Shown here piece after piece: positions 4,567-59,038 of a DNA stretch of 64,000 nt (positions are counted from its first letter, which is position 1; the number at the start of each line of letters is the position of its first letter). Below the pieces are notes generated by a model. It was not told the origin of the DNA. It made no database searches and was given only the letters and a program-made list of their open reading frames with translations. Origin of the DNA: Vulcanimicrobiota bacterium (lineage in GTDB: Bacteria; Vulcanimicrobiota; Vulcanimicrobiia; Vulcanimicrobiales; Vulcanimicrobiaceae); the NCBI GenBank assembly GCA_963695225.1, contig OY968762.1, forward strand, positions 284,501 to 348,500, written 5' to 3'. A program made the position numbers and the translations under genes.

Positions 4567-4580
4567 CGGCGGGCCGCTCG

Positions 4581-10870: not shown

Positions 10871-10873
10871 GCC

Positions 10874-25904: not shown

Positions 25905-26098
25905 GTCGCTTGGGGTTTCGGCAGACGGAGCGGGGGTCCGCCTTGGGGGCTGCGTAGAGCTGCTGTGTGCCCTAGCGGATGCCGTCGCCGCCGTGTACCG
26001 GGTGGAAGTGCTCGACTATGCGCTCCCCTTCCCGGAAGTTGCGCGGAGAGCTACGTCTGCAGCGGGGAGCGGCTGCATCAGAGCCCAAGTACCGCTGC

Positions 26099-32483: not shown

Positions 32484-32499
32484 GAAATGGTCTTCCCAT

Positions 32500-35400: not shown

Positions 35401-35544
35401 CTCTGCGAGCGCAAGAAACGGGCGGGGGAGGCGCTCGCCTACAACGGCCTCGTACAAAGCTGGCCGGAGATCGTTCGCATTGCGCGCGAGGGCGCAAAGC
35501 AACAGCCTGCGCAAGCCGGCTTATTTGAAGAAGCGGAGAGCTGA
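32500..35544 (+). CDS. DUF1156-type DNA methyltransferase (amino-MTase, DPPY)
   Basis: The N-terminal [19 protein letters not shown] is the DUF1156 signature. DPFAGGG is the AdoMet loop and [12 protein letters not shown] is catalytic motif IV. 16 nt downstream of the helicase gene. Confidence 0.85.
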
Positions 35545-35547
35545 TTC

Positions 35548-39966: not shown

Positions 39967-39967
39967 T

Positions 39968-41695: not shown

Positions 41696-43574
41696 CTAGT
41701 CCGCGTTGCACTTCAGAGGAATGTCCAGCCGAAGCTGCCGGCATCCGGCGGAGATTAGCGCATGGTAGGTAGCGTCGAGATCGGCTAGCGGCGGGACGAA
41801 GATCATCATCCCGTCGCGCCCACGCGTCATGAGGACGCGGTAGCTATTGAGCCTTAGCTGTCGAGCGTCGTGGGCCTTGCTCCGAACGACGGATGTGGCC
41901 CATTCTCTGCCGTTCCACACGAGGTCGGTATCCCAGCCAACGATTGGGAAATCGAGCTCGAGGCCTTGGCACGAGAACTCCGTCGCGACTTCGAGCATCT
42001 GGCAGCACGATTTCAGCGACGACGCGGGTTCGTTATACCAGGGACCGGGACGGAAGCCGCGAGTCGCTTGGAACGATGTGTTCATTCCGAAGAGCGGGAG
42101 ATGCTTCGCCTTCGATGAGCCGAGAAGCCCGAAGCGCCTTTCTTCCTCGCCCTCGTAACGAGCGCGAACGTAGCGCTTCGCTTCCTCAAGATCGCGTGTG
42201 ACATAGAGATCGAATGACGCGCGCTGCATCGAATCGGCGATGGACGCCGCCTCCGAGAGCTGCCCGTCGAGAACATGCTTCACCCAGTCGTGAAGGCCGC
42301 CGGCGGCATGCGATCGCAGCGTCACCTTGAGCTCGAGCGCATCGTCGACGACGACCTTCTGACCACCAAACACGGAAGCCACGTGCTGGGGGCAATGGAT
42401 CGTCCAATCGCCGCCGCTTGCCTTTATGGCGTCGCTCCAGAGCCGAAGGCCGCCCTCCTCGCCCAAGTGGATCTCCTGGCCCTCGCCGATCAGGCCGACG
42501 AGCATCGCCCAATCCGGCGTCCTCATGCCCAGCTTCACGAAGTCCTCGGGCTCCGAGAGTGGGTGCCCCCGTTTGCCCATCACGCGCTCGCTATCCCAGG
42601 CGCGCTGTGCCTCATCGTAGACCCAGATGTGTTCGGTCGGCAGCTTCTTTGAGGCGCCGCCGTAGCGAACGAGAAAACCATGCACGTCTTGAACGAAGAT
42701 CCGATTCTTGAGGGCGTGTTGGAGGACGTCGACCAGCGGGCCGTTGCCGGAGAGAAACACTGCCGGGCCGTTCCGCTTCGTCGTCCGAGAAGCGCGTCAA
42801 GTACACGAACTGAAGGCCAACGAGCGTCTTCCCGGCGCCGGGTACGCCGGTGACGAGCGCGAGGTGACGCTCCCCGTTCCTCTGCGCTTGGCCGGCGATG
42901 CGCTGAAGCGACTCCAGTGCCTCTGGGATTCCGGCACTCGACGCCCGGCGGATCTGCGGCAGTGCCTCATGTTCAAATATCCGGCGAGCAGCGGCGACCA
43001 ATGCCGGCAGAGGCTCGTAGTCGGCTTCGACCCATTGCGAAATGCTTGCCCGCGCGAGTTCGTGATTGTCCGGCACGGACTGAAGATACGAGGCGAGGGT
43101 CTTGCCTCCAAGGATGGTGACGTTATCGACATCCTGTGCGGGCAGGGACGCATCGTCGAGGGCCAGGATCGGCCGGACGTCGAGCTCGTGCGATCCGGCA
43201 TGATATTCGCGGAGATCGCGCGCATACGCGTCGACTTGATCGACGTCGCTCTGCTCGGCGTACTGCCGCCCTTTGAACTCGATCACATGCGCCGCCGGCC
43301 CCGTCAGGAGGACAACGTCCGGCCGCCGCCCGCGTTCCCGTGGTAGTTCGTACTCGAAAACGAGCCCCCAGTGCCGCACGCCCGGCCGTTGTTCGACGAG
43401 CTCATGGCATTCGCGCTTGAGGACCCTGATAGAATCGGCCCACGCCCGGATCTGCCCATCGCCGAGCGGCAGATTGAGATCGTGAATCAGCGCCGAGAAG
43501 TCCTTTTGCAAAGTAGCCGGCGTCTCTGCCAGGAACTCATCGATCGTACCGTACCAGCCGCAACCGTTATTGAT
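41696..43574 (-). pseudogene. DUF2075-family ATPase/helicase-like protein, interrupted by a 1-nt frameshift
   Basis: Track ORFs 42612..43511 (VTGVPGAGKT... FVYLTRFSDDEAERP) and 41696..42760 (FLSGNGPLVDVLQ...) are two halves of one DUF2075-type protein. The frames join at the run gccgggcc (42762-42769). Confidence 0.7.
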
Positions 43575-43613: not shown

Positions 43614-46334
43614 CTACCGCGCCGCAAGCTCAGCACCGCTTACGGGGATCATCGGCGCGTTCGCGCCCGCATAGTCCTCCGGCCGGCACGTGAAGATGAC
43701 GATCTGAGCCTGTTCCGCTAGCTCGCGAAGGACCAGGAGCAGCCGCCTGCGGCGCACTTCGTCCGCATGGACGAGCGGGTCGTCGAGGAGCACCGGCATT
43801 CGGCCGAGGCGGTCCGGCGCCGTTAGCAGCGATGCGTAGCCGAGGCGGACCAAGAGCCCGAGCTGGTCGATCGCCCCGAACGAAAGCTCCGTCACGTCGA
43901 TCGGGTGGTGCACGCCGTCGACCTGCAACTGCTCCATCGCGTGATGCTCGCTGATCTGTAGCCCTTCAAGCCTGCGGCCAAAGATGCGCTCGTACCAGGG
44001 ACCGACGCGCGCCAGTACGGGCGCCGCGTAAGCTGCGACGCGCTGATCGTCCGCCGTTTTCACGAGTACGTAGAGCCGCTTGAGGGCCCGTTCCTCCTTC
44101 TGCGCTCGCTCGAGATCACGCCGCACGCGTTCGCGCTGCTCCTCGTACTCGCTCAATTCCGCGCCCGGCGCAGCGTTGCGCTTTGCTTCGAGGCTCGCCC
44201 GGAGCCGCGCGCATTCGCCTTCGGCCTCCCGCGCGAGCTTCGCGAGCGTCTCGGCCTGCGCTTCGACCTCTTCGAGCGCGGCCGCCGGATCGGCGAGTTC
44301 GGCATACGGCGCATAGGCGGCGACTGCCGCCTCCAGCGCTAGCGTCGCAGTCTGATCCTTCTGGTAGGCATCGCTCAACTGAGCGGCGCGCTGCTCGTCG
44401 CTCTCGTTTGCGAGCAGCCGCTTGAGCGTTTCTCGCAGCGGCGTGAGCTTCTGCTCCCGCAGTTGGGCGTATGCCGCCTTGTCATCGTCCGATCGCTTGC
44501 GAGCCACCGATAGCACAAGTGCGCTTCGCTCGAACTCTGCGCGCGCGGCCTCGCGTTTTGCTTCGTTTGCCTGCTCCCTCTCGGAGATCCGCACGCTCAG
44601 CGCGTCGCGGTCGTCATCCGCTCCCGCCTCCGCGAGCAGCGCGTCGATCGTCGTAATCCGAGAGGCGATCGCGCGGGGGTCCGCTCCGCTGAGCCGGTCC
44701 GATCGGGCAGCCTTCAGCTCCTCGATCTCTCGTCTCAACACCGCAGCGCGCTCACGGGCGACGCGCAGTTCGCTGGTGTCGGCAGTCCCGGCGGCCGCCT
44801 CGATCGCGGCGATCCGCTGGTTCGCTTTCGAGAGTTGACTCTGCGCAGCGGCGAGGTCTGCCACGGGCCCGCGGACCTCGATCGCGCCGACGCCCTCGAT
44901 CTCGAGGCGGATCGGGCCGTCTCCGATAAAGCGGGCGGGCTCGCCGGCCGGCGCCGTCTCCTCCCGTTCGATCCCGGCCGCCGTCCAGCGAATCGGAAAC
45001 GCTCGCTCGGGCGTGAAGGTGACGCTCGTGCGCGCCGCCTCCAGTTGCGCTGTGAGGTCCCGGCTGCGTTTGATGAGGCCTTCGAGTTCAGAAATCGTCG
45101 CGTCGTCGATCTCGGGCAGCGCGCCGAGTTCCTCGGCCTTGCTCGCGATGTTCCCGTCGTAAGCCGCGACGTCGAGTTGCTGCCGCGCGAGCTTCTCGCG
45201 CTCCCCGCGCAGCCGTTCGGCGCGATTCGCCTCTTCGAGCCGGCGGCGCCACGCGGCAAGCTCGGTATCTTCGGAGGTCGCCTCGTTCAGCGTGAGCTGC
45301 GCGGCGTCGTGCGCGGCTGTGGCTTCGCGCAATGCCGCTTCGCTCTCGGCCAGCGCCGCCGCGAGTTTGCGTTCGTTGCCTTCCTCCGCGGCGAGCAGCT
45401 CCTGCGTCTCGCCGATTGCGCGCTTGCGCTCGACCGCCTCCGCGTACGCCTTTGCAGCCGCATTGTGTGCCGCCCGCGCGCTGTCGAGCGCGCCTTTCAG
45501 CTTAACGGCGTCCCTGAAGCGCGGACGTTCTGCCTGCACGCGCGCCTGCGCCTCAGCCGCCGCCGCGCTGCGCGCGTCGCTCGAGTCCTCGGCATCGCGC
45601 AGGGCGACCGCAAGCGCTTCCAGCTCGCTGACGCCCGCGGCGCGGCATCTGATCTCCTCATCCAGCTGCCTGAGTTCCTCGGCTAGCGCTGGGCTCGGCG
45701 CGGTTTTCCGCGGTTGGCCGTCGCCTTTGAAGGTCGCGTCATACGCCTTCTTGATCCGCTGCGCGATCTGCGCTTCGCGTTCCGTCTGTCCGGCGGCGCC
45801 GATCGCCTGGCTCAGGCGCGCTTGCGCGCTAGAGTTCAGTGCGAGGTCTTTCTCGTCTCCGAGAATCGGGATCCGCCCCTGCGGCGCGAATAGCAACTGC
45901 GCGAGCCCCAAGTGCCGCCCCTGGAAGCCGCTGAAGGCGCCTTTCCCGGGCGGATCGCCCTCGAAGATCTTGGTGACGAAATCGTCCGCGTCGGCGCCCA
46001 TGAAGGGCGTCGCTTTCCCGGCGGTGTCGAGCGTCGAGAGCTGCGTGCCGCCGCGCGGTCCCCACCATTTTTCGAGGCGGTACTCGACGCCGCCGTGCGC
46101 GAAATCGACGATGACCGTCGGCGCAAGGCCGCTCGTATCCCACGGGGCGAGCGTCTCGATATCCGCGCCGCCCGCGCCCGAGCGGCGGAAGAACGCGTAC
46201 TGCAGCGCCTGGAAGAGCGTCGATTTGCCGGCCTCGTTCGGGCCGTGCACGATCGTCATCCGCTCGTCCAGCGTGAACTCGACGGGGCGGTTGTGGCGGC
46301 GGAAGTGCTTCAGTTCGACGCGTCGCAGAATCAT
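43614..46334 (-). CDS. SbcC/Rad50-like SMC-type ATPase
   Basis: MILRRVELKHFRRH...GPNEAGKST Walker A, a ~600-aa Ala/Glu/Arg-rich coiled coil, and C-terminal LSFGAIDQLGLL signature-like and VLLDDPLVHAD Walker B/D-loop motifs. ATGA overlap with the sbcD-like gene. Confidence 0.8.
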   Translation of the reverse strand: MILRRVELKHFRRHNRPVEFTLDERMTIVHGPNEAGKSTLFQALQYAFFRRSGAGGADIETLAPWDTSGLAPTVIVDFAHGGVEYRLEKWWGPRGGTQLSTLDTAGKATPFMGADADDFVTKIFEGDPPGKGAFSGFQGRHLGLAQLLFAPQGRIPILGDEKDLALNSSAQARLSQAIGAAGQTEREAQIAQRIKKAYDATFKGDGQPRKTAPSPALAEELRQLDEEIRCRAAGVSELEALAVALRDAEDSSDARSAAAAEAQARVQAERPRFRDAVKLKGALDSARAAHNAAAKAYAEAVERKRAIGETQELLAAEEGNERKLAAALAESEAALREATAAHDAAQLTLNEATSEDTELAAWRRRLEEANRAERLRGEREKLARQQLDVAAYDGNIASKAEELGALPEIDDATISELEGLIKRSRDLTAQLEAARTSVTFTPERAFPIRWTAAGIEREETAPAGEPARFIGDGPIRLEIEGVGAIEVRGPVADLAAAQSQLSKANQRIAAIEAAAGTADTSELRVARERAAVLRREIEELKAARSDRLSGADPRAIASRITTIDALLAEAGADDDRDALSVRISEREQANEAKREAARAEFERSALVLSVARKRSDDDKAAYAQLREQKLTPLRETLKRLLANESDEQRAAQLSDAYQKDQTATLALEAAVAAYAPYAELADPAAALEEVEAQAETLAKLAREAEGECARLRASLEAKRNAAPGAELSEYEEQRERVRRDLERAQKEERALKRLYVLVKTADDQRVAAYAAPVLARVGPWYERIFGRRLEGLQISEHHAMEQLQVDGVHHPIDVTELSFGAIDQLGLLVRLGYASLLTAPDRLGRMPVLLDDPLVHADEVRRRRLLLVLRELAEQAQIVIFTCRPEDYAGANAPMIPVSGAELAAR

Positions 46335-47536
46335 CGCGCGAACTCCGCGAGCAGCTCGAGGGCGCGCCCGGCCGTGGCCGTGTCCTCGTTGCGATCGATC
46401 TGGTCGAGCAGGTGCGCGGCGATGCCTTGGAACTCGCCGGGTGGGAAGGCCGCCAGCCACGCTTCGCGCGTCTGCGGCCGCGCCTCGATCGCGCGTTCGA
46501 AGGCGATGAAGAAGAAGCGCGCGCCAAGTTCGGCTTCGAGGGCGGCGAGCCGCTCTGCGGCGGCCGGCGTGCACAAGCCTCGGACGTGGATGCGCGCGAG
46601 CGTCCGCTCCGGCGCTTCGAGCGCGCGCAGGTCGCCCGCGAGGCGATCGACCGAGGCTTCATCCGAGATCTCGTGCGTGCGTTCGATCCAGCGGAGCTCC
46701 CCGACCGGGATGCGCTCGATCGACGGCCGCGCGCCGCGTGCGGCGATCGTCACGATCGAGACCGTTCCGCAATCGCGATCGGCGAAGCTGGACTGTTCCG
46801 GCGTCCCGCAGTAGGCGATCTGCGCGGCGCCGTCGTCGTAGCTCTGGGCGCTGTGCCAGTGGCCGAGCGCGAGGTAATCGAGGCGCCCGCGGGAGGCCGC
46901 GTCCAGGGGAATCGGAAACGAGCCGCGCTGCTCGCCTTCCGATGTCTCGATCGTGCCGGGGATCTGCAGCTCGCCGTGCGCGAGGCCGACGCGGATCGCT
47001 TCCGGCGCCGTGTCGTGGCCGGCATACCATGCGGTCGGGTCCTCGGTGCTGTACTTCTTCAGGCAGGGAGATGCGAGCAGGACGCCGCCGCCGGGGAGGT
47101 CGTAGGCGCGCGGCTCGTGGATCGTCACGACGTTCGCTCCGTCCAGCGTCTGCCAGGCCGCGCCGGCGTACGGTCCGTCGAGCCCGCCCGGATCGTGATT
47201 GCCGGGGAGGATGTAGACCGGCATCTTCGCGCGCCGCAGCGCGCCCGCTACTTGCCCGATCTCGGCGGCGTGCGGCGTGCGCTCTTCGAACTGATCCCCG
47301 GCGACGAGGATGAAGTCGACCTGCTGCTGGTTGGCGATGTCGATGATCCGCTCGACGGTCCTCCGCCGCGCCTCGCGCACGGCGCCGGCCTTGTCGCCGG
47401 CTTGCAAGCACTTCATCCCGATTTGCCAGTCCGCGGTATGCAAGAACTTCAGGGGTGATCCTCCGTTGCCGACGCATGCACTGTTCCCGGGCTCTATATC
47501 GTGGCCGCGGGCGTGCCGTGCATCACCGTACGCCAC
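46331..47536 (-). CDS. SbcD/Mre11-like metallophosphoesterase
   Basis: HTADWQIG, GDQFE, GNHD and GHWH calcineurin-like phosphoesterase motifs. The functional start may be the CTG at 47452, with GGAGGA 6 nt upstream, rather than the ATG at 47536. Confidence 0.8.
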   Translation of the reverse strand: MAYGDARHARGHDIEPGNSACVGNGGSPLKFLHTADWQIGMKCLQAGDKAGAVREARRRTVERIIDIANQQQVDFILVAGDQFEERTPHAAEIGQVAGALRRAKMPVYILPGNHDPGGLDGPYAGAAWQTLDGANVVTIHEPRAYDLPGGGVLLASPCLKKYSTEDPTAWYAGHDTAPEAIRVGLAHGELQIPGTIETSEGEQRGSFPIPLDAASRGRLDYLALGHWHSAQSYDDGAAQIAYCGTPEQSSFADRDCGTVSIVTIAARGARPSIERIPVGELRWIERTHEISDEASVDRLAGDLRALEAPERTLARIHVRGLCTPAAAERLAALEAELGARFFFIAFERAIEARPQTREAWLAAFPPGEFQGIAAHLLDQIDRNEDTATAGRALELLAEFAR

Positions 47537-47646
47537 GCGCGCGTCGCACGGTTGACGTACGCATACGATACGTTATCGGCGGCAGCGTACGCCGTGTCGA
47601 GGACTTAGGCGAGACAAAATTTTGTGCGCGATGTAGTGCGTAGTGT
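46838..47646. repeat. direct repeat copy A (~0.8 kb: sbcD 5' two-thirds plus upstream region)
   Basis: Near-identical to 56828..57636 by direct reading at an offset of ~9990 bp. Homology starts at ...tagc(t/a)ctgggcgctgtgccagtgg and fades after tgtagtgcgtagtg. Confidence 0.9.
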
Positions 47647-47936: not shown

Positions 47937-49202
47937 ATGAAACCAGGACTGCGATTCGCCGACGCGCTGAGATGGGCGTGTTTCAGCGCGCTTGTCGCCA
48001 TGCTCGCGACCCTTGGCGCTGCCGTCGATGTTTCTGCGGAGGACTCTCTTGAGGCGGCCTATTCAGCGATCCAACCCTCCCTTGTACTAATTGGCTCCTT
48101 TAAGGGAAGGACCTTACTCGACACTGGATCTGGCTTCGTTGTTGGTAATCGCAACGGCCACGCGTTGATCATAACAAATCGCCATGTCGTTGCCAGCGGC
48201 GACAACTACGTCGCCATTCGCCAATACCCAACGACAATCTCCGCTACGCTTCACCTCGTGAGAGTGGGCACAGCTGACGATGTCGCGCTACTAGAAGCGA
48301 GCAGCGGTTCGATACCGCCGGTCTCCTTCCTGAACGGCTTGCCAACGCTCGGTCATCGCATCGCCGTCGCAGGTTATCCGCGCACGCAGTTAACCTTTGC
48401 GCAACTCGGCTTGGGGTTGACGCCGTCTATCCATGCCGGCACGGTGAACGCCTTACCGGCTAATGGGTATTACGTTCAATATGATGCTCAGACTGAGCCT
48501 GGAAACAGCGGCGGTCCTCTTTTCGATGCTAATACCGGTGCCGTCTTCGGAATTGTCGTTGCAAAGGTAAAGGGGGCAAACGAGAGCAATATCGCGATCG
48601 CGTTCCCGAGGCTTGCGAAGTTCCTCAGCAACGCAGGTGTTGGGCTCCGAACACGGCCGGACTCAGATGCAACTGCAGCAGTCCCGTCGCCGACGCCGAT
48701 TCCGACGCCGGTACCGACTCCAGCGATCGACGTGAGCGCATGCCGGTCCGCACTCTCTGATTTCTATACGGCAAGTACGGCGCTGAACGATGCCTTTAAT
48801 CGCTACATTAGAGCACAGCAGAGCGCAAGCTCATCGGCTCAGGTGGCAACCACTCGCGTCGCGATGAGTGTGGCGCAGATCGCAGCTGCCTACGAGCTTC
48901 GGGCGATCCGATCTGTGATCGACGCCGAAGAGCCAAAGTTCATCGGGCCGGAATCGTCGATCGAACAAAGCGGAGCACTCGAGACAGCGCGCTTGACGAG
49001 TCGCATAATTAACCACATACATATGCGCGATGGATACGCCCTAAACTGGTCTCAAGCACGATACAGTCTATTTGGGAACATTGCGAATGGCGGCTCCGGT
49101 TTCCAGCTCGATCAAACACCGCTAAACGAAAGCAATTTTCTGACAGGACAGATCGACAGCGACTTTTCCGAACTACGGCTAGCTCGGCCCTGTCAGCAGT
49201 AG
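47937..49202 (+). CDS. secreted trypsin-like (S1-type) serine protease with C-terminal domain of unknown function
   Basis: Hydrophobic N-terminus. Candidate catalytic residues in ITNRHVV, DVALLE and GNSGGPLFD. A Pro/Thr linker (PSPTPIPTPVPTP) precedes a ~170-aa C-terminal region. Confidence 0.75.
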   Translation: MKPGLRFADALRWACFSALVAMLATLGAAVDVSAEDSLEAAYSAIQPSLVLIGSFKGRTLLDTGSGFVVGNRNGHALIITNRHVVASGDNYVAIRQYPTTISATLHLVRVGTADDVALLEASSGSIPPVSFLNGLPTLGHRIAVAGYPRTQLTFAQLGLGLTPSIHAGTVNALPANGYYVQYDAQTEPGNSGGPLFDANTGAVFGIVVAKVKGANESNIAIAFPRLAKFLSNAGVGLRTRPDSDATAAVPSPTPIPTPVPTPAIDVSACRSALSDFYTASTALNDAFNRYIRAQQSASSSAQVATTRVAMSVAQIAAAYELRAIRSVIDAEEPKFIGPESSIEQSGALETARLTSRIINHIHMRDGYALNWSQARYSLFGNIANGGSGFQLDQTPLNESNFLTGQIDSDFSELRLARPCQQ

Positions 49203-49603
49203 GTGTCAACGGCAGCGACTGAAGACGGCACGTTGCTTTAGTGTTTCGCAATGGACAATGCGTAACGACTTCGTGCTCGTGGAGGGCACCCCGATTCTTA
49301 CGCCAGCGGGACCACAATTTCGAGCCGCCTAAACGGCTCGTTCTACGGAGGTCCCCATGGCCCGCAAACGACACTCCCCCGAGTCGATCGCGAAGGTCCT
49401 ACGTCAAGCCGAGTCCGGCGTTCCGATCGGCGAACTCGCGCGCAAGACCGGAGTCCACGAGAACACGGTCCATCCTCGGCGGGCAGCTAAAATCGCACAC
49501 CTGGGGGCACTTCAAAACCGCACACTACCCGGTGGGCAGTTCAAAATCGCACACCTGATGTAGCCTCGGGCACGCCAAGGGTGGCAGCGCGAACAGCGTT
49601 GCC

Positions 49604-51172
49604 ATGAACGTACTGGACGTGGCCGATCGAGACCGTATTCTGAACCTGCTGCGCAAGCGCTGGAGCATCCGGCACGTCGCGCGCGAAACCGGACACCGGC
49701 ACGAAACGATCCGCCGTTACGGGGTCGAGGCCGGCATCCTGGCGCCAAGGCCGGCAAAAGGTACCACCCCGGCCGAAGTGGCCGCCGACCCAAAACCGCA
49801 CACCGAGCCCGAAGTGCCCACCGGGTCGGCTCCAAAACCGCACACCGAGCCCGAAGTGCCCACCGGGTCGACGCGCAGCAGCGCCGAGCCGTTTCGGGAG
49901 TTCATCGAGGCAGAATTGCGCAAGGGCCGCAACGCCAAGGCGATCTTCCAAGACCTGGTCCTGCATCGCGGTCACACCGGCTCCTACGACGCGGTGAAGC
50001 GGCTGGCTCGCACGTTGCGAAAGCGCGAACCGAAGATCAGTTGCCGCTTCGAAACCGACCCTGGTCAAGAAGCCCAGGTCGATTACGGCGAAGGCGCGCC
50101 TGCGCGCGATCCGCGCACCGGCAAGTATCGCAAACCGCGCCTGTTTGTGATGACGCTTGGCAACAGCCGCCACGCGTTTCGCAAAGTCGTCTGGACCTCG
50201 TCGACGGAGATCTGGTGCCGGCTGCACGAGGAAGCATTCGCGTACTTCGGCGGCGCGACGCACACGATTCGCCTCGACAATCTCAAAGAGGGCGTTCTTA
50301 AGCCCGACGTTTGGGACCCGCAGCTCAATCCGCTCTACGCCAAGCTGCTCGAACATTACGGCGTTGTTCCGCTACCCTGTCGGCCGCACGCTCCCGATCT
50401 CAAGGGCAAAGTTGAATCGGCGGTCGGCTATACGCAAGGCACGGCCCTGAAGGGAAAGCGCTTTGAGAGCATCGAGGACGAGAACGCGCATCTGTTCCAG
50501 TGGAACGAGAACTGCGCGGCAACGCGAATCCACGGCACGACCAAGCGGCAAGTGCGGGCGATGTTCGAAGAGGAGCGGTCGCATCTCTTGCCGCTGCCGG
50601 CCAGGCGCTTTGAGTACTACCGCATCTGCGAGCGGACGGTGCACTTTGACGGCTACATCGAAGTCGACGCTGCCTACTACTCGGCGCCGCCGCGCTACGT
50701 TGGTAGCAAGGTGGTCGTGCACGTCGGCAGGCTGTGGCTGCGCATCGTTGATCGCACGACGCACGAATGCCTGCGCGAGCACACGATCGCGCTGCAGAAA
50801 GGCCAGCGCCGGACGCACGAGGCCGATCGCCCGCGGCAGACGCCGATCAGGGTCGAGAAACTGGCCGCTCGGATCGCCGGAGCGGGGCCCGGCTGCGCGG
50901 CCTTTGCGCAAAAGCTGATCGACACTCGCGGCGCGATCGCTCTGCGCGCGCTCTATGGGATGCTGGACCTGCTGCGCCGCTACGGAGCCGACGACGTCGA
51001 CCAGGCATGTGCGTTTGCGGCACGATCGGGGATCTCGAGCTTTCGGTTCGTTCGAACATATCTCCAGCACCACGCAACGCCGCTGAAACTCAAAGGTGAG
51101 CATCACATCATTCCGGAGATCGCGATCTACACAACGCACTTCGCCACCGTTACGCAAGGAGCAACCCCATGA
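49604..51172 (+). CDS. istA: IS21-family transposase IstA
   Basis: 522 aa with an N-terminal HTH and a DDE integrase core (QVDYGE..., typical IstA layout). Overlaps istB by 4 nt. Confidence 0.9.
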   Translation: MNVLDVADRDRILNLLRKRWSIRHVARETGHRHETIRRYGVEAGILAPRPAKGTTPAEVAADPKPHTEPEVPTGSAPKPHTEPEVPTGSTRSSAEPFREFIEAELRKGRNAKAIFQDLVLHRGHTGSYDAVKRLARTLRKREPKISCRFETDPGQEAQVDYGEGAPARDPRTGKYRKPRLFVMTLGNSRHAFRKVVWTSSTEIWCRLHEEAFAYFGGATHTIRLDNLKEGVLKPDVWDPQLNPLYAKLLEHYGVVPLPCRPHAPDLKGKVESAVGYTQGTALKGKRFESIEDENAHLFQWNENCAATRIHGTTKRQVRAMFEEERSHLLPLPARRFEYYRICERTVHFDGYIEVDAAYYSAPPRYVGSKVVVHVGRLWLRIVDRTTHECLREHTIALQKGQRRTHEADRPRQTPIRVEKLAARIAGAGPGCAAFAQKLIDTRGAIALRALYGMLDLLRRYGADDVDQACAFAARSGISSFRFVRTYLQHHATPLKLKGEHHIIPEIAIYTTHFATVTQGATP

Positions 51173-51933
51173 CCAACGACGAACTCGACCGCGCTCTGCG
51201 GCAACTGCGCATGAGCGGCATGGCCGACGCCGTTCCGATCCGAACGCAGCAGGCCCGTGCTGAGAACCTCGGCCCGCTCGATTTCATCAGCTTACTCGTG
51301 CACGATGAGCTGCAGCGGCGGCGGGATCGACTCATCGAGCGCCGCGTCAAGGCCGCCGGCTTTCGCGACCAGAGAACGCTCGACACGTTCGACTGGAAAT
51401 TCAACACGCTCGATCGCGCGCTCATCTTCGAACTGGCCAACGGGCGCTTTATCGAACAACACGAGGACGTTCTGTTACTCGGCAACGCCGGCGTTGGGAA
51501 AAGCCATATCGCGCAGGCGATCGGCATGGCCGCTATTCATGCTGGTTTCCGCGTATTGTACCGCGAGGCGCACGCGCTCTTCGAAGACTTCCTTCTCGCT
51601 GGCGCGACCGGCGAGCGCGGCACCGCGATCGCGACCTTTAGCGAGATACCCTTGCTCATCATCGACGACTTGGGGATGCGCAAACTCCCCGCCAACGCAG
51701 CCGAGGATTTGCTCGAAATCGTCATGCGACGCTACGAGCGAGCATCGACGATTCTGACCTCGAACCGACCGCTCGACGATTGGCCTAAGCTCTTCGGCGA
51801 CACGCCCGCCGTTGCGGCCTTTCTCGACCGGCTAATGCATCATTCGCATCTGATCGAGATTCGCGGCAAGAGTTATCGGCTCCACGAGCACAGCATCGCG
51901 GCCCGCCACCGGAAGGCAAAGGCGAGCGCGTAG
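51169..51933 (+). CDS. istB: IS21-family helper ATPase IstB
   Basis: GNAGVGKSH Walker A and LLIIDDLG Walker B; DnaC-like AAA+. Confidence 0.9.
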   Translation: MTNDELDRALRQLRMSGMADAVPIRTQQARAENLGPLDFISLLVHDELQRRRDRLIERRVKAAGFRDQRTLDTFDWKFNTLDRALIFELANGRFIEQHEDVLLLGNAGVGKSHIAQAIGMAAIHAGFRVLYREAHALFEDFLLAGATGERGTAIATFSEIPLLIIDDLGMRKLPANAAEDLLEIVMRRYERASTILTSNRPLDDWPKLFGDTPAVAAFLDRLMHHSHLIEIRGKSYRLHEHSIAARHRKAKASA

Positions 51934-52227
51934 CCAACGATTGCGACAAACATCACTCAGCCCGAGGCGTGCGGTTTTCAACTGCCCACGGGTGTGCGGT
52001 TTTGAGCTGCCCCCTGAGGCGGTCCATCTCTGGAAGAAGAAATACGGGACGCTCGGCACGCCCGAGCGTCGCGAGATGAACGAGCTGCGTGACGAGAACA
52101 CGCGACTCAAGCGTCTGGTAGCCGATCTCACCCTCGACAAGCTGATGCTCCAGGATGTGCTCTCAAGGAAGCTCTGAAGCCGGCCAAGCAGCGCGTCCTA
52201 GCCGGCGAACTCCAAGCAGAGTACGGC

Positions 52228-53043
52228 GTGAGCCAACGGCACGTCTGCGAAGCGCTGCGGTTCAATCGGAAATCAATCCAGTACAAGCCGAAGACCAGCG
52301 CCGTCAAAGAAGTGCTGCGCGGCCGCATCAAAGAGCTAGCGCAGGCGCGCGTGCGATATGGGTATCGACGGATCCACGTGTTGCTTCGCCGCGAGGGTTG
52401 GAAGGTCAATCCAAAGCGCATTGCTCGGCTATACCGCCAAGAAGGCCTGAGTTTGCGGGCAAAGGGTCCGAAGCGACGTAGCCGGTCCGCGGTTCAGCGC
52501 GTTCGAATTGCCGCGACGCAGGCGAACCATGTGTGGAGCATGGACTTCATGCATGATGGGCTGATGGGTGAAGATCGTAAGACGTTCCGCCTGCTGACGA
52601 TCGTCGACATTTTCACGCGCGAATGCCTTGCGCCCGAAGTCGCGAAGGGCTTCAGCGCTCGAGATGTCGTCGGTGTTCTAACACGGCTTGTCAGCCGGCG
52701 AGGGGCGCCGATCGCCATCCGCTGCGATCAAGGCACGGAGTTCACGGCGGAAGCGCTCGACCAACGGGCGTACAATAACCGCATCGAGCTCGACTTCTCA
52801 CGTCCTGGAAAGCCAACCGACAACGCCTTCGCCGAGGCGTTCAACGCGAGTGTCCGCAAAGAGTTGCTCAACACGTCCTGGTTTGATACGTTAGAAACGG
52901 CCCGTCGAGCGGCGCGGTCGTGGCGACGAGAATACAACGAGGTTCGCCCACACCGGTCGCTGGCCAACGAAACGCCGCAAGCCTTTGCCCTATCGGAAAA
53001 GCGGCGAAATGAACCCCAAGAGCCACAAAGCCCGTTGGCGTAA
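52228..53043 (+). CDS. IS3-family transposase OrfB (DDE/rve domain)
   Basis: HVWSMDFMHD...TIVDIFTRE...CDQGTEFT...RPHRSL integrase-core pattern. The frame is open upstream to ~52163 and is -1 relative to the orfA end, consistent with OrfAB frameshift fusion. Confidence 0.85.
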   Translation: MSQRHVCEALRFNRKSIQYKPKTSAVKEVLRGRIKELAQARVRYGYRRIHVLLRREGWKVNPKRIARLYRQEGLSLRAKGPKRRSRSAVQRVRIAATQANHVWSMDFMHDGLMGEDRKTFRLLTIVDIFTRECLAPEVAKGFSARDVVGVLTRLVSRRGAPIAIRCDQGTEFTAEALDQRAYNNRIELDFSRPGKPTDNAFAEAFNASVRKELLNTSWFDTLETARRAARSWRREYNEVRPHRSLANETPQAFALSEKRRNEPQEPQSPLA

Positions 53044-53070
53044 CGAATGGGGCACCTCCACATATGCGAT

Positions 53071-55575
53071 CTATCCCTGCAGTTGCTGTCTTTTTGCGTC
53101 TAAGAACTCAAGCGTACTTTCAAACTCCAACCACTGCGCTGCATGTTCCAGCTCGCGAATCCCATGCCTACCGCAAATATACTTCGTACACGCAACTAGA
53201 TGCGCATAGACCCCCATGTTCTCCGCTTCAGCCTGCATTTGCGACAGTAAGCAATCCAAGAGGCGCTCCTCGCCACGCCTCCAGTGAACTAGGGCTACAG
53301 CCTGTAATGCGAAGAGCCGGCCAGCTCTATATCCAGCCCTATCCTGGACTTGCAACGCTCGGGCCGCTGTAGCAAGAGCATCGGAAATACGGTCCAGCAT
53401 CAACTCGGAAATCGCCATGGCCGCCAATGCTTTGCCTGCCTCAATAGGTGCGCCTACAGCTTCATTAGCTTGAACAGCAGATAGCGCCAAATCAAGTGCT
53501 TCCTGCGGCGCACGCCAACAGAGTGTTTCGACTCTATTGGTAAGCGCCTTCGCGATCATCGCCTCACAACTCGCAGCCTCCGCCGTATCAAGAGCGCTGC
53601 CATAGCATCCTAAGGCCGCCTCGTGAAGATGATTAAAGCGCCGATTATGACCTTTGAAGCGCCAGCACTCCGCAACCCAAATAGAGTCATCGCGCCGTTC
53701 TCGCAGTGCTTCATCGAAGATAGCATCCGCCTCCCGAAACCTGCCGCGGATCATCTCGATGTCGCCTAGCTGCCTGCGCGCTGCACAACGATTGCTAGCC
53801 CCAAGTGCGCCGTTGGCGGCGATATTCGCGATGTCCACATAGACCGCAGCTGCAGCGCCGTAATTCCCGAGAAGATGCGCGGTATGAGCGCTAAGGTATC
53901 TGTAAAGCGGCCGCCAATCCTGTAGACGATCTTCAAATTCGGCGAGCCTCGCGTAAGACCGCGACGCTTCCTCGAGCCGGCCCTCCTTGCGAAAGCAGTA
54001 TGCTTGTAACAATAGCAGTCGCAAATCGATTTTTGAGGGGCCGACGGCGACCGAACCGCTGAACCTGCCCGCCAGATAGCTTTCAAGGACGCCGGCGACC
54101 CATATCCATCGGCCCGCCTCGATGCCGTCGAGAAGCGTTTCGACCACTGGTTCCCAGCGCGCCCTTTGATCGTCTGCGGCATGGAGTGGAAATCGCCGTA
54201 GAAGGCTCATGTAGGCCTCGGTAAGCCACATTTGTCTCTGAGCGTCGTTACCATGTTCCCGGGATTCCATCAGCTGCTCTTGGAGCGAGCGAACGACGCC
54301 GGCTAGAATAACAGACATCGGCCTAGCTGCCAGATGCATGGCAAACGTACTCTGCATTGCGTACAAGCCGAGTTGTGCGTCAACGACATCGCTATATGAT
54401 ATCGCACAGAATTCATCAAAAAGAGATAACGGCACAGGAAGATTCAAATTACGAACAATTGCCGCGAACAGCTCGCTGTCGAACTTGACTACGAGCGCTA
54501 TTGCGCGAGCAGCGTGACGCATTCCTTGGTCCAGATGACTCAAGAAACGGTCGATCACATCGCCCTGATGCAGAGCAAAGTCCGCGGCCTTGACCGCGCT
54601 TCCATTAGCCTTCTCGATCAAATAAGTTGAGGCACATAAGTCAAGATAGAGCGGTACCCCGGCAGATACGCTAATGATGGCATCTCGAATGTCCGGTTCG
54701 AGCACTGGAATGCCCGTGAGGTACTGTTCCGCATCGGCGCGTGCCAAGGCGCCCAACAGGTGCTGCTCGAGTACTTCGTCCCATTCCGGGTTCCATTCGC
54801 TCCAGCGGATAAATTCACGTGAGCCGATTACGAATAGGGAGCGTTCGGATGCCCCAATGAGCTCTTGTACCCAGGCATCGAGCCGTTGCTTCGTGCTGTT
54901 GAATTGTTGCCTCTTGTGAAGGGCCTCAAATGAGTCTAGAAAGAGAACGGCGTGCGCATCGGTTAGGAGCAAACCGCGTGCGATGTCATCGGCAAGATAA
55001 AACGGAACCTTCATTACTAGATCCTCTTCAGAGAGCAAGTCTATGGTCTCAAACTCTTCTCTTAGCGAGGTGAGATGTTGTCGGACAAACGCATTTGCGC
55101 GCCCAGCAAGTTTGCGGAATAGTTTGAAGACGGGAATCACGCCTACGGCCTCAGCAGCAACGTCGATGGCGTCTAAGAGAAGGCTGTTCTCGCCGAGAAG
55201 TGACTTGTTCAGGTTTCGAAGCTCCTCTCCAGATAGCTGAAGCGCGCGCGCAACAGCGTACTCGAAGCGGTAGCACGGAATGCCTAACTGACGGCGAATC
55301 TCCAGAAGTAGGTCGATAGGGCTCCTGAGGAGCGGATTCTCGCAGTCCACGGACGCAAGACGGACGCCATGACGAGGGATGTTCTCTTTTAGCTCGTGTA
55401 TTAGCGCTGACTTGCCGATGCCACCAGCGCCGTAAAACGTTAGCACTCTAAGGGAAGCCGTGCCATGTGTTATGGAAGCGAACAGGCGATTGAATGCTGC
55501 TTGCGCAGTCTCTCTGTCGGTAAACCGTTTGGTTGCCGGGTCCTTTAGAAGGCCTTTATACTTGCTTAACGTCAT
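53071..55575 (-). CDS. STAND NTPase (NB-ARC-like) with C-terminal TPR-like repeats
   Basis: FYGAGGIGKSAL Walker A ~40 aa from the N-terminus, VLFLDSFE Walker B, and SAGVPLYLDL (equivalent to the NB-ARC GxP/GLPL motif). A ~400-aa helical-repeat C-terminus follows. There is no N-terminal effector domain. Confidence 0.75.
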   Translation of the reverse strand: MTLSKYKGLLKDPATKRFTDRETAQAAFNRLFASITHGTASLRVLTFYGAGGIGKSALIHELKENIPRHGVRLASVDCENPLLRSPIDLLLEIRRQLGIPCYRFEYAVARALQLSGEELRNLNKSLLGENSLLLDAIDVAAEAVGVIPVFKLFRKLAGRANAFVRQHLTSLREEFETIDLLSEEDLVMKVPFYLADDIARGLLLTDAHAVLFLDSFEALHKRQQFNSTKQRLDAWVQELIGASERSLFVIGSREFIRWSEWNPEWDEVLEQHLLGALARADAEQYLTGIPVLEPDIRDAIISVSAGVPLYLDLCASTYLIEKANGSAVKAADFALHQGDVIDRFLSHLDQGMRHAARAIALVVKFDSELFAAIVRNLNLPVPLSLFDEFCAISYSDVVDAQLGLYAMQSTFAMHLAARPMSVILAGVVRSLQEQLMESREHGNDAQRQMWLTEAYMSLLRRFPLHAADDQRARWEPVVETLLDGIEAGRWIWVAGVLESYLAGRFSGSVAVGPSKIDLRLLLLQAYCFRKEGRLEEASRSYARLAEFEDRLQDWRPLYRYLSAHTAHLLGNYGAAAAVYVDIANIAANGALGASNRCAARRQLGDIEMIRGRFREADAIFDEALRERRDDSIWVAECWRFKGHNRRFNHLHEAALGCYGSALDTAEAASCEAMIAKALTNRVETLCWRAPQEALDLALSAVQANEAVGAPIEAGKALAAMAISELMLDRISDALATAARALQVQDRAGYRAGRLFALQAVALVHWRRGEERLLDCLLSQMQAEAENMGVYAHLVACTKYICGRHGIRELEHAAQWLEFESTLEFLDAKRQQLQG

Positions 55576-56558
55576 CGCGATGGCCGATCGTTCACTTTAG
55601 CGCATTGGGTGGCTGAGGCGTCTAGCAGTAGTCGGTGTCGAGGAATAGCCGAGTCGAGATTGGTGGCTTTGGATGAGTAATGTGAATGCAAGTCGCTGAA
55701 CAGTCCGCGGTATCGGGTTACTGCGGGAGGAAGGCCAGCGTTAAGCGGATGTTTCTCTGTTAAGCCGTCGCGCCACGTAAGAGTGATAGATTCCTGAGAA
55801 TGATCTAAGGTGACGTCGCAGTGTTCGTAGTAAAGCGTCGTTGTCTTAGAATTGACATTTAGGGTCCAACTCGTGTCGATGTGAACGATAAACCCTTCTG
55901 AAGGAGTCTTTCCGCTCAGAAGAGCGTTACCCGCGATTTGCGTACATGGTAATTCGCGCAGGCTGATCATCGTTGATGAGAGCATTACGAGAGTCGCATC
56001 GGCAAGAATCTCGTCAAGGACGGTTAATGCATTAATTCCGCTATCTAGCCAAGATCCACTCAGACTCTTCCCTGCGGCGAGGGCGTCACCGTTCGCGATA
56101 TACGGATCGTAGAAGCGACAACTCACTGCTTTCAGAGAACCCAGGGTTGACTTCAGGTGCCTGCAGATCTGCTTCCATCGGAGGATTTCGACGCCAAAGG
56201 CGAAGTGAAACATCGCATAGATCGTGGCCGATTCATGAGCGGAGAGGCGCTCGAGTTCGGCAAGGTCGGCCGCATTAGAGACGAGCGGCTTCTCAACCGC
56301 TGTGCGGCGGCCGGCAGAAAGTGCCGTCTTAAGATGCTGGAAGTGCGTGTCCGTTGGCGATGAGATGACGATCACATCGGCCGGTGAAGAGTCGATCAAA
56401 TGCTGAGCTGTACGATGCCTCGTGATAGACTGCGGGAGGGCTTGCATTCGGGCGACTTCTGGGTCGTAAGCATCGGTGATTTGGATCTGGGGCAAGAGTG
56501 ATAGTGCACGCAGATAATACTCCGTAACCTTGCCTACGCCAAGCAACGCAATATTCAT
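55572..56558 (-). CDS. Gfo/Idh/MocA-family NAD(P)-dependent oxidoreductase
   Basis: N-terminal Rossmann loop MNIALLGVGKV and the family-typical EKPL motif, in 328 aa. The stop overlaps the STAND start by 4 nt. Confidence 0.7.
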   Translation of the reverse strand: MNIALLGVGKVTEYYLRALSLLPQIQITDAYDPEVARMQALPQSITRHRTAQHLIDSSPADVIVISSPTDTHFQHLKTALSAGRRTAVEKPLVSNAADLAELERLSAHESATIYAMFHFAFGVEILRWKQICRHLKSTLGSLKAVSCRFYDPYIANGDALAAGKSLSGSWLDSGINALTVLDEILADATLVMLSSTMISLRELPCTQIAGNALLSGKTPSEGFIVHIDTSWTLNVNSKTTTLYYEHCDVTLDHSQESITLTWRDGLTEKHPLNAGLPPAVTRYRGLFSDLHSHYSSKATNLDSAIPRHRLLLDASATQCAKVNDRPSR

Positions 56559-56826
56559 GATTCTCGTCGACCGGAGCCTTTCGAGTTCGACCGTGATTCG
56601 TGGTTGAGGACGCTAAGGGAGCAGCACGCTGGTCGAGTGCGAGTAAGCGGCGCTTCGCGGCGGGGGCATTCGGTTCCGGCCAGCCAATGCGAGGGCGAGC
56701 TTGTTGGGTTCAACCGAACATAGCCGAAGGTGGCAGTCGGGCCGTGAGCGCAGGCGATCAGGTCGTAGGGGCCAACGAGGTGCATGAGCTCAAGCGCCGG
56801 TTGTCGAGTCGCAACGACTAACGATT

Positions 56827-57525
56827 CTAGCACTGGGCGCTGTGCCAGTGGCCGAGCGCGAGGTAATCGAGGCGCCCGCGGGAGGCCGCGTCTAGGGGGA
56901 TCGGAAATGAGCCGCGCTGCTCGCCTTCCGATGTCTCGATCGTGCCGGAGATCTGCAGTTCGCCGTGCGCGAGGCCGACGCGGATCGCTCCCGGCGGCGT
57001 GTCGTGGCCCGCGTACCATGCGGTCGGGTCCTCGGTGCTGTACTTCTTCAGGCAGGGAGACGCGAGCAGGACGCCGCCGCCGGGGAGGTCGTAGGCGCGC
57101 GGCTCGCGGATCGTCACGACGTTCGCTCCGTCCAGCGTCTGCCAGGCCGCGCCGGCGTACGGGCCGTCGAGCCCGCCCGGATCGTGATTGCCGGGGAGGA
57201 TGTAGACCGGCATCTTCGCGCGCCGCAGCGCGCCCGCGACCTGCCCGATCTCGGCGGCGCGCGGCGTGCGCTCTTCGAACTGATCCCCGGCGACGAGGAT
57301 GAAGTCCACCTGCTGCTGGTTGGCGACGTCGACGATCCGCTCGACGGTCCTCCGCCGCGCCTCGCGCACGGCGCCGGCCTTGTCGCCGGCCTGCAAGCAC
57401 TTCATCCCGATTTGCCAGTCCGCGGTATGCAAGAACCTCAGGGGTGATCCTCCGTTGCCGATGCATGCACTGTTCCCGGGCTCTATATCGGGGCCGGGGG
57501 CGTGTCGTGCATCACCGTACGCCAC
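56827..57525 (-). pseudogene. truncated second copy of the sbcD-like gene (first 232 codons)
   Basis: The translation differs from the 46331..47536 product at about a dozen of 232 positions. It stops (..HWHSAQC*) exactly where nucleotide homology to copy A ends. Confidence 0.85.
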
Positions 57526-57636
57526 GCACGCGTCGCACGGTTGACGTACGCATACCAGAGGTTATCGGCGGCAGCTTGTTCCGCATCGAGGAATTCTCGA
57601 AACGCCCGTTCTCGAGCGGTGTAGTGCGTAGTGCGA
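56828..57636. repeat. direct repeat copy B (~0.8 kb)
   Basis: See copy A (46838..47646). Confidence 0.9.
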
Positions 57637-58045: not shown

Positions 58046-58426
58046 CTAGACCGATCGCGTGCAGCAGGGCGCGCCTAAGTTCATCGAGTGCCTCGTGGAG
58101 AGGCTGACGGTCGGAATGTACTTGCCGCGCACTCGCACGCGGTCGAGGCGCTCGAAACGGACATGTGCTAGCAGGTCCGCTTTCGCCCAAGTGTCGACGG
58201 GGCCGAAACAAGCATAGCTACCCGGCGGAAAATGAACGTGGATTGGCTTGATCGGCCTGGGCGGCGCCGTACTGACAGGGACTACCAACGCTATCGGTGC
58301 CCCGGCATTTCGCGGTGAAACGACGACAACACGCCGCAGCTTTACCATTTCCGGCGCGACATAACCCGCGAAGTCGCACATCCAGACTTCACCGGGCGAT
58401 GGGATAATATTCGGTGGGAGCGACAT
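58046..58426 (-). CDS. PemK/MazF-like toxin-fold protein (no adjacent antitoxin recognised)
   Basis: PSPGEVWMCDF....PEMVKLRRVVVVSP matches the N-terminal SH3-like strand pattern of PemK/MazF-family proteins. Confidence 0.55.
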   Translation of the reverse strand: MSLPPNIIPSPGEVWMCDFAGYVAPEMVKLRRVVVVSPRNAGAPIALVVPVSTAPPRPIKPIHVHFPPGSYACFGPVDTWAKADLLAHVRFERLDRVRVRGKYIPTVSLSTRHSMNLGAPCCTRSV

Positions 58427-58560: not shown

Positions 58561-58791
58561 TCAGAGAAGGGCCCGCAATTCGTCGACGGTTAGGCCGGCG
58601 TCGTCTAGAATGGCGGCGGGCGTGCCGCGCTTGATCGTATCGCCACGGTGAACGTGGACCGTCGTGCGCCGGCCGTTTTCCGGATTCTCCGTGAAGTGTG
58701 CACTACCGCGAATGCGAATGACGACGAACCCTGCACGCTGGAGTGCGCGGACTAGCCTGCCGCCTTCGACGACTGGGAGCTTTTCGCTCAT
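58561..58791 (-). CDS. hicA: HicA-family mRNA interferase toxin
   Basis: 76 aa. LVRALQRAGFVVIRIRGSAHFTENPENGRRTTVHVH is the classic HicA dsRBD-like pattern with a catalytic His. Confidence 0.8.
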   Translation of the reverse strand: MSEKLPVVEGGRLVRALQRAGFVVIRIRGSAHFTENPENGRRTTVHVHRGDTIKRGTPAAILDDAGLTVDELRALL

Positions 58792-58798
58792 AGCGCAG

Positions 58799-59038
58799 CT
58801 ACGCCGCGGGGGCGGGAAGTGTGACTGCCACGGCAGTCACGATATCTGACGGCGGAAGCGGCTCGCCGCGCTCGGTCATCACCTCAGCGTGAAGTTCGAT
58901 CACCTCGCGAGCATTTGCGAGGCATTCCTCGACCGTCTCCCCTTGCGTATGTGCGCCCCGGAACGCGGGGATGTGGACCGAAAACCCACCTTCGGCCTCG
59001 GGCTCCAGCACGACTGCGTACGACCGTTCCAACGCCAT
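58799..59038 (-). CDS. hicB: HicB-family antitoxin
   Basis: YAVVLEPEAEGGFSVHIPAFRGAHTQGETVEECLANAREVIELH is a typical HicB/UPF0150 N-terminal domain. It lies 7 nt upstream of hicA. Confidence 0.8.
   Translation of the reverse strand: MALERSYAVVLEPEAEGGFSVHIPAFRGAHTQGETVEECLANAREVIELHAEVMTERGEPLPPSDIVTAVAVTLPAPAA

Follow-up and report, generated by a model that had tools for sequence, protein, structure and literature searches.

The OX-STAND gene pair and its products

The 64,000-nucleotide stretch of contig OY968762.1 from a Vulcanimicrobiota bacterium, referred to as a whole as the window, carries on its minus strand two adjacent genes, the first encoding an oxidoreductase of the Gfo/Idh/MocA family (OX) and the second a STAND NTPase with no fused effector (STAND), which together span 3.5 kb (Table 1). 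The junction between them reads ...CGA TGA / ATG ACG, with a stop/start overlap of 4 nt (ATGA), and the two proteins are probably co-expressed in stoichiometric amounts. The GC fraction of the module is 0.54, against 0.65–0.71 in its surroundings. The original prediction, made from the letters of this DNA, had described a minus-strand operon with a 4-nt overlap, A/T-rich, lying in a defence island and flanked by an insertion sequence (IS) on one side and a truncated sbcD copy on the other, and this description was borne out. Both open reading frames (ORFs) are exactly as claimed and the ATGA could be read in the sequence; Hma, HEC-01 and a split PDC-S41 homologue lie upstream, an IS3-family orfB ends close to the STAND stop codon, and the N-terminal sbcD fragment (56827-57525) forms one arm of a direct repeat. 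A promoter and terminator scan of the region 5' of OX gave nothing above chance, and an Rfam scan of the module returned no match.

The N-terminal part of OX (residues 1–112) matches Pfam PF01408 (GFO_IDH_MocA, 6e-15) and contains the sequence VEKPL at residues 88–92, in agreement with the 328-residue Rossmann/EKPL oxidoreductase that had been proposed. The NCBIfam search gave weak matches to many sugar dehydrogenase models, none of them above its cut-off. The AlphaFold2 (AF2) model (pLDDT 89) has the canonical two-domain Gfo/Idh/MocA fold, in which the Rossmann domain with its GxG and EKP motifs is followed by a C-terminal alpha/beta substrate domain. Foldseek placed this model close to DgpA2, SqgA and L-arabinose 1-dehydrogenase (TM-scores of 0.7-0.79), with E 1e-18 and TM-scores of ~0.75 to many structures of the family, and the close structural neighbours all act on sugars (DgpA, NAD-dependent glycosidases, L-arabinose 1-dehydrogenase). 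A homologue search with the single sequence returned only OX itself, the homologues being retrieved with an alignment as the query, and no sequence-level relatives of the C-terminal domain alone were found in the PDB.

Judged over 21–48 members of the family, the residues G7, G9, D32, E89-K90-P91, H118, the FxDPY motif, D172-S-G-x-N176, W231, K238, H253 and Y283 are invariant. Residues K90, H118, D172, N176 and W231 align with D-galactose 1-dehydrogenases (GalDH) and match K91, H119, D169, N173 and W231 of the L-arabinose 1-dehydrogenase (AraDH) of A. brasilense. In the latter enzyme Lys91, His119, Asp169, Asn173 and Trp231 contact L-arabinose, Asn173 being found in place of the usual His/Tyr (PMC9795676). 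OX therefore carries the residue set of an aldose 1-dehydrogenase (the EKP Lys, the His119-like His, Asp-x-x-x-Asn instead of the usual His/Tyr base, and the Trp231 equivalent), and it also shares with AraDH and GalDH the length of ~310-330 residues, the two-domain fold and the D-x-G-I-N-A-L-S motif. However, it is only ~17-20% identical to them, has FxDPY, K238 and H253 as extra invariants, and its relatives occur with cytidylyltransferases and not in pentose catabolism. A preference for NAD rather than NADP is predicted because D32 is invariant; the NADP-dependent galactose 1-dehydrogenases have a Ser at this position. Since the catalytic residues are strictly conserved, OX is almost certainly an active enzyme. 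The NAD(P)-consuming role once suggested for it is not supported, as a dehydrogenase interconverts NAD+ and NADH and does not destroy NAD.

In STAND, the Walker A motif is preceded by three short helices only, and the absence of a fused effector was correctly anticipated. All its Pfam matches are weak (AAA_22, AAA_16, nSTAND6 and NACHT near Walker A, and TPR_12), and no other domain, either effector or DNA-binding, was detected by Pfam. The AF2 model (pLDDT 87) consists of the three short N-terminal helices, the nucleotide-binding, helical and winged-helix domains (NBD-HD-WHD) and an all-helical solenoid that reaches the C-terminus. Its best fold match is the archaeal STAND-TPR protein PH0952 (6mfv, E 1e-9), further STAND NTPase matches being MalT, NLRPs including NLRP9 and NLRP14 and, at a distance, CED-4, and the sensor part matches the peptide-binding TPRs of Rap and LGN. 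All the parts expected of a STAND protein are present, namely the P-loop NTPase motifs, the GxP motif, the winged helix and the C-terminal repeat sensor. The glycine-rich loop GxGGIGK[ST], Walker B hhFLD[ST]xE, the sensor-1 Arg (R253) and the GxP motif G[VL]PLYLD are kept in 13/13 pairs examined. These motifs, together with the fold matches to PH0952 and MalT, argue that the 834-residue protein is a competent STAND NTPase of the AAA_16/MalT type. The NB-ARC label first given to it (the Apaf-1/R-protein/CED-4 clade) could not be kept, as PF00931 gives no match even at E<=0.1. Among the PADLOC models only mad8 was hit (E 0.025), with no match to Avs1-4 or the other STAND models, and NCBIfam gave nothing specific.

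The sensor solenoid is specific to the family, and its invariant residues include H567, D605, R639, H643, R646, K676, N680, E683, E712, K715 and Y749. With the family profile, its only sequence-level similarity is to the TPRs of LGN/Pins (E 4e-12). The LGN/Rap-like architecture of the model and the ~25 invariant residues suggest a conserved protein or peptide ligand.

The NTPase of AAA_16 type, an FTDRE motif before the P-loop and weak TPR similarity to MalT and AfsR recall a transcription factor of the MalT/AfsR/LAL type, which in this case would control the OX gene. Pfam detects neither a helix-turn-helix of LuxR or any other type nor a BTAD or OmpR domain, and the confident AF2 model is solenoid to the last residue. 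The DNA-binding domain that the original prediction feared to have missed is thus seen by neither approach. The two genes are, moreover, translationally coupled and not divergent, and this explanation is left with a very small probability and can be considered effectively refuted.

Recurrence of the pair and the wider OX family

Loci, designated by L numbers, were gathered by looking up gene neighbourhoods and by scanning genomes and metagenomes. About 30 full-length STAND relatives were obtained, at 23-39% identity. OX and STAND are adjacent and on the same strand in 24 distinct loci, where the genes mostly overlap or lie <=10 nt apart. OX precedes STAND in 14 of these (the window, L001, L004, L006, L018, L019, L078, L079, L087, L089, L090, L098, L152 and L153) and follows it in the other 10 (L008, L009, L013, L016, L026, L050, L061, L077, L095 and L097). 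The pair is present in Alpha- and Gammaproteobacteria, Clostridia, Actinomycetes and Thermoplasmata archaea, its hosts including metagenome-assembled genomes of Xanthobacteraceae and Thermoplasmata, Wenzhouxiangella marina, Ruminococcaceae/Clostridiales, Yinghuangia soli, Pseudonocardiaceae and Acidiplasma aeolicum. The adjacency, whose restriction to a single contig had been named as a reason for giving up the idea, therefore extends across phyla and domains.

In the genome scan OX was adjacent to every STAND scoring at least 680 bits against the family profile, and STAND relatives below 340 bits had no OX, with the exception of an actinobacterial clade with a divergent pair. The profile covers the OX-linked STANDs from end to end and the OX-less relatives over the NTPase and arm only. 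Therefore, the family-specific sensor and OX co-occur, and the sensor is not seen without the enzyme. The pairwise identities of both proteins are correlated (Mantel r=0.85, p<=0.0002). No third gene is shared across the loci, neither among genes of at least 100 residues nor among small ORFs, and neither a fused effector nor a recurrent neighbour was found for the OX-less sister STANDs. As nothing but OX and STAND is shared, they constitute a strict two-gene module, which is conserved, co-inherited and translationally coupled. The region of the window is heavily rearranged (an IS3::IS21 nest and a duplication of sbcD), and IS or recombination events could have brought both genes together by chance; the recurrence in 24 loci, in both gene orders and with correlated divergence, refutes this possibility. 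In L089 the STAND gene is in two pieces (4013-5227 and 6920-8056) lying ~1.7 kb apart, and may have been disrupted by an insertion.

The surroundings of the pair include two different defence operons. In L006/L007 a BREX locus harbours it between PglX and PglZ, together with a PhD/PIN pair. In L152 it lies between HmaB (54% identical to that of the window) and HmaC (46%), overlapping hmaB by 8 nt; because the L152 STAND is only 33% identical to the STAND of the window, its association with Hma is an independent one. A MazE/PemK pair and an unannotated gene of 301 residues (L152, 369-2023) are found between hmaA and hmaB of the same locus, and Hma operons seem to tolerate embedded cargo, like BREX. 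A CARF-type PD-(D/E)xK nuclease is directly upstream of the pair in L008. In L001/L017 and L087 the pair is cargo of elements resembling integrative and conjugative elements (ICE-like), which have a relaxase and DUF87/TrwB ATPases in common, and an integrase is near the pair in L090. The GC of the pair is below that of its hosts, and its distribution across the domains is patchy. Further Hma or BREX genes were searched for in the other loci and none was found. Since most copies are unlinked to these systems, the pair is autonomous and not a component of either of them.

In L018 a PDC-S01 homologue (4606-5643) is directly downstream of the pair. Homologues of this gene are also directly downstream of STAND in L023 (~9803-10963) and L042 (~9696-10973), and the three loci are unrelated, that of L018 being archaeal and OX-linked and the other two bacterial and OX-less. 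PDC-S01, a PADLOC candidate, may be either another recurrent partner of STAND or a gene of mobile elements.

The OX family is larger than the set of pairs and comprises ~426 clusters at 50% identity (E<=1e-30). Of 26 full-length members in metagenomes, 8 are STAND-linked and 8 unlinked on informative contigs, the contigs of the rest being too short. In a neighbour-joining tree of low resolution the STAND-free and the STAND-linked enzymes are intermingled, and the former keep all the signature residues. The STAND-free genes, which often overlap with their neighbours, adjoin cytidylyltransferases (CTP_transf_3), glycosyltransferases of the GT2 and PMT types, Ldh_2, SDR and methyltransferases, or else Mur-ligase-like genes. 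This context points to a family of glycan or activated-sugar oxidoreductases, a subset of which seems to have been wired to a STAND with no obvious change in the active site, and it suggests a glycan-pathway sugar, and not a free aldose, as the substrate of OX. In L015, L081, L091, L083 and L086 a STAND-free OX belongs to a recurrent cluster, whose other members are two or three cytidylyltransferases (CTP_transf_3), a GT2 that in some cases is fused to a cytidylyltransferase, an acyl-carrier/AMP-ligase pair, Ldh_2, SDR and methyltransferases. The cluster appears to encode an uncharacterised pathway of CMP/CDP-activated glycan tailoring.

A candidate conflict module and its alternatives

The explanation that we regard as the best, and to which we give an even chance of being right, is that OX and STAND form a horizontally mobile two-gene conflict or defence module in which STAND switches OX as the enzymatic output. 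The location of the pair inside two different defence operons (BREX and Hma) and on mobile elements supports it. We infer what triggers STAND, its physical complex with OX, which of the two controls the other, the substrate and a phenotype against phages, and these would be connected as follows. STAND would rest in a closed, ADP-bound state until a trigger binds to its TPR-like sensor; the most plausible trigger is a protein or peptide made during the invasion by a phage or mobile element. Nucleotide exchange would then lead to the oligomerisation of STAND, and the oligomer would recruit or activate OX, the sole catalytic output available. OX would in turn oxidise a sugar or activated-sugar metabolite, with the same chemistry as its STAND-free relatives in glycan biosynthesis, and the diversion of an envelope or nucleotide-sugar precursor or the perturbation of NAD+/NADH would cause the infection to fail or the cell to arrest. 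If OX is the effector, redox imbalance or the sugar that is its substrate or product would be the more likely source of its toxicity or protection. In a more specific form, which we put forward tentatively, the pair may represent a new anti-phage or anti-mobile-element immunity where a pattern-recognising STAND switches on an NAD-dependent sugar dehydrogenase that oxidises an essential sugar metabolite. With the same reserve, this metabolite might be a nucleotide-sugar, a precursor of the envelope or a ribose species with a free anomeric position, DNA, proteins and NAD+ being left uncut.

Several observations weigh against a defence module. Neither protein is matched by known defence hidden Markov models, and an aggregate PADLOC scan of 107 neighbours recovered clear defence genes in few loci only, all of them described above, housekeeping genes being the neighbours at about half of the pair loci (L004, L013, L016, L019, L026, L050 and L153), which form a small sample as a whole. 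No copy of the pair was found in 50,697 phage genomes, 2.9 M viral contigs (IMG/VR) or plasmids, where the only matches were distant, limited to the NTPase and on Streptomyces plasmids. About half of the OX family has no STAND and is found in glycan clusters, and no residue that distinguishes the STAND-linked from the STAND-free enzymes, as a putative interface would, was found. The effector-less sister STANDs indicate that this NTPase lineage can work without an adjacent enzyme, and a reversible dehydrogenase is not obviously a lethal effector. The module is, besides, known here from sequence comparison and predicted structures.

An unlikely but by no means negligible alternative places the pair in the tailoring of glycans or the envelope and not in immunity, with STAND acting as a signal-dependent scaffold or allosteric switch for the ordinary sugar-pathway step of OX. 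The conserved clusters of the STAND-free members, the lack of residues peculiar to the STAND-linked enzymes and the housekeeping surroundings of about half of the loci, with Wzy_C near the pair in L013, would agree with this role. However, the genes of the glycan clusters never occur at STAND-linked loci, and the insertion of the pair into BREX and Hma operons, its presence on ICE-like elements, the patchy cross-domain distribution and the GC that deviates from that of the host are difficult to accommodate. A cytoplasmic ATP-driven oligomerising switch would also be an unusual regulator for one metabolic step.

The logic could also be reversed, OX being a sensor, guardee or negative regulator that reports a metabolite or NAD(H), and STAND the executor. 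We hold this to be improbable, and equally so the routes by which such an executor would act, through its own oligomer or through partners whose genes lie elsewhere, possibly those of the neighbouring restriction-like systems. MalY and Aes regulate MalT, and the NAD-bound Gal80 is the yeast analogue. The place of MalT among the top fold neighbours and the existence of an inhibitory complex between MalT and an enzyme (8bob) are in line with this arrangement, as is the ability of the sister STANDs to function with no adjacent effector, and the strict co-occurrence of sensor and OX would fit a sensor that binds OX or its product. On the other hand, STAND has no output domain of its own and no second conserved gene accompanies the pair, and the strictly conserved catalytic residues argue that turnover, and not mere binding, has been selected.

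The comparison with known systems serves to delimit what is new in the proposed defence module. Avs and other antiviral STAND proteins share with it the P-loop STAND NTPase, the C-terminal repeat sensor, the location in defence islands or mobile elements and a presumed oligomerisation, induced by a ligand, that switches on an enzymatic output. Unlike them, the STAND of the window has no fused N-terminal effector, its NTPase is AAA_16/MalT-like and does not belong to the Avs clades, and its partner is a separate, predicted NAD-dependent sugar dehydrogenase, an effector class that we did not find reported. MalT and PH0952 (6mfv) are the best structural neighbours, with the same NBD-HD-WHD-arm-TPR/SUPR sensor organisation, and MalT (with MalY, Aes and MalK) provides the precedent for a metabolic enzyme that binds a STAND protein. 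However, MalT has a LuxR helix-turn-helix output and a sugar inducer, and in the window the protein has no DNA-binding domain and its enzyme is an obligate, co-inherited operon partner. Gal80 is a catalytically inert regulator with the Gfo/Idh/MocA fold, which signals by protein-protein contacts modulated by NAD(P); in OX, by contrast, the catalytic residues are strictly conserved. The positions in L006 (BREX, with PhD/PIN) and L152 (Hma, with MazEF) resemble those of embedded accessory genes, e.g. the type IV restriction or toxin-antitoxin modules between pglX and pglZ, but most copies of the pair are linked to neither system.

STAND/NLR-like immunity is known to end in nucleases, proteases, NADases or pores. 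A STAND sensor with a separate enzyme is a known kind of arrangement; what is new here is the class of the partner, the sensor private to the family and the connection to glycan chemistry. If the defence explanation is true, NLR-like immunity would have in OX its first effector of the oxidoreductase class, which would add a metabolic, carbohydrate-directed output to the STAND repertoire and link immune sensing to glycan or sugar-nucleotide chemistry; if the pair does not serve defence, it would still represent an unreported control of a metabolic enzyme by an ATP-driven oligomerising switch. It defines in either case a Gfo/Idh/MocA subfamily of ~400 clusters. The pair is small, self-contained and present in the cultured Wenzhouxiangella marina, Acidiplasma aeolicum and Yinghuangia soli, and is therefore directly testable. 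It is covered by none of the PADLOC v2 models and by no specific model of NCBIfam (June 2026). In the library searched, no literature linking Gfo/Idh/MocA enzymes to STAND NTPases or defence was found; neither the main survey of NTP-dependent conflict systems by comparative genomics (PMC7159879) nor two large discovery studies of recent date makes this link, in accordance with the initial impression of an unrecognised pairing.

Setting of the pair in the window

Table 1. Features of the OX-STAND pair and of its surroundings, in window coordinates.
Feature	Position	Strand	Details
OX gene	55572..56558	-	328-aa Gfo/Idh/MocA oxidoreductase, predicted NAD-dependent; first gene of the pair; ORF and PF01408
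OX Rossmann domain	56199..56558	-	residues 1-120; GxG (G7, G9), D32
OX EKP motif	56286-56294	-	
OX D172-S-G-I-N176 motif	56031..56045	-	aligns with DPGIN of D-galactose 1-dehydrogenases
STAND NTPase gene	53071..55575	-	834 aa, effector-less; ORF, AF2 model, fold matches
ATGA stop/start overlap of OX and STAND	55572..55575	-	read in the sequence; translational coupling
STAND nucleotide-binding oligomerisation module	54328..55452	-	residues 42-416, including the winged helix
STAND Walker A (GAGGIGKS)	55408-55431	-	residues 49-56
STAND Walker B (hhFLDSxE)	54925-54948	-	
STAND GxP (GVPLYLD)	54652-54660	-	
Family-specific TPR-like sensor solenoid	53074..54315	-	residues 421-834; ~25 invariant residues
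Region 5' of OX, up to the sbcD' breakpoint	56559..56827	-	269 nt; presumed promoter region
IS3-family orfB (transposase)	52228..53043	+	ends 28 nt from the STAND stop; ORFs and translations
IS3 orfA, split by the IS21 insertion	49357-49563 and 51941-52177		ORFs
IS21-family element	49503..52014	+	istA 49604-51172, istB 51169-51933; nested in IS3
Direct repeat, copy 1	46839..47586		inside intact sbcD (46331-47536) of the sbcDC operon
Direct repeat, copy 2	56828..57575		5' part of sbcD with the 50 nt preceding it; limits the low-GC insert on the OX side
Hma system, complete	28887-38871		HmaA SNF2+NOV_C, HmaB DUF1156 methylase, HmaC DUF499; each >1000 bits to PADLOC
HEC-01 (PADLOC candidate system, A and B)	39343-41068		DUF4276 and AAA_21 gene pair
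PDC-S41 homologue / Schlafen-group-3 helicase, split	41696-43511		overlapping ORFs 41696-42760 and 42612-43511

The two copies of the direct repeat are 748 nt long and 96.1% identical (95% at the protein level over 231 residues), with sbcC located at 43614-46574. They bracket ~9.2 kb of lower-GC DNA that contains a secreted trypsin-like peptidase, the IS3::IS21 nest, STAND and OX. The copies diverge by 4%, which suggests a recombination event involving a related allele and not a recent duplication. The IS21 element ends in 23-nt inverted repeats (49503-49525 / 51992-52014); its assignment and that of the IS3 element are presumed from the translated sequences. The IS region has no close match in plasmids. 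Within this nested region (49300-53070), istA carries a perfect tandem duplication of 39 nt (49790-49828 / 49832-49870), which encodes the repeated peptide PKPHTEPEVPTGS.

The peptidase gene (47937-49202) encodes a signal peptide, a trypsin-like serine peptidase, a Pro/Thr-rich linker and an unannotated C-terminal half, with weak PADLOC matches to the protease domains of RT-Protease, LmuA and Avs1b. It was considered as the effector of the pair and rejected: it has a signal peptide, it is convergent across the IS, and it never occurs in the other loci.

In the defence island, the HmaC of the window has an N-terminal HEPN_Swt1 domain (residues 11-124) that falls outside the alignment with the HmaC of L152. 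Directly upstream of Hma (25979-28416) there are an ORC/CDC6-like AAA ATPase (26836-28416) and an unannotated ORF of 285 residues. The two overlapping ORFs of the PDC-S41 homologue match separate parts of the profile (positions 269-634 for 41696-42760 and 28-261 for 42612-43511), and probably correspond to a frameshifted pseudogene.

On the other side, 1.5 kb beyond OX, a toxin of the PemK/MazF family is encoded at 58046-58426, where no obvious MazE was called. It is followed by genes that we take, from reading their sequences, to be hicA (58561-58791) and hicB (58799-59038).

Two further repeats were observed in the window. About 11.5 tandem copies of a 108-nt (36-residue) unit, with ~75% identity, occupy positions 15928-17168, and these units presumably encode Sel1-like repeats (GVPQDYAQAMHWY..AA.QG). 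The comparison of the window with itself also showed a direct repeat of ~500 nt with 73% identity (21507-22003 vs 22424-22920).

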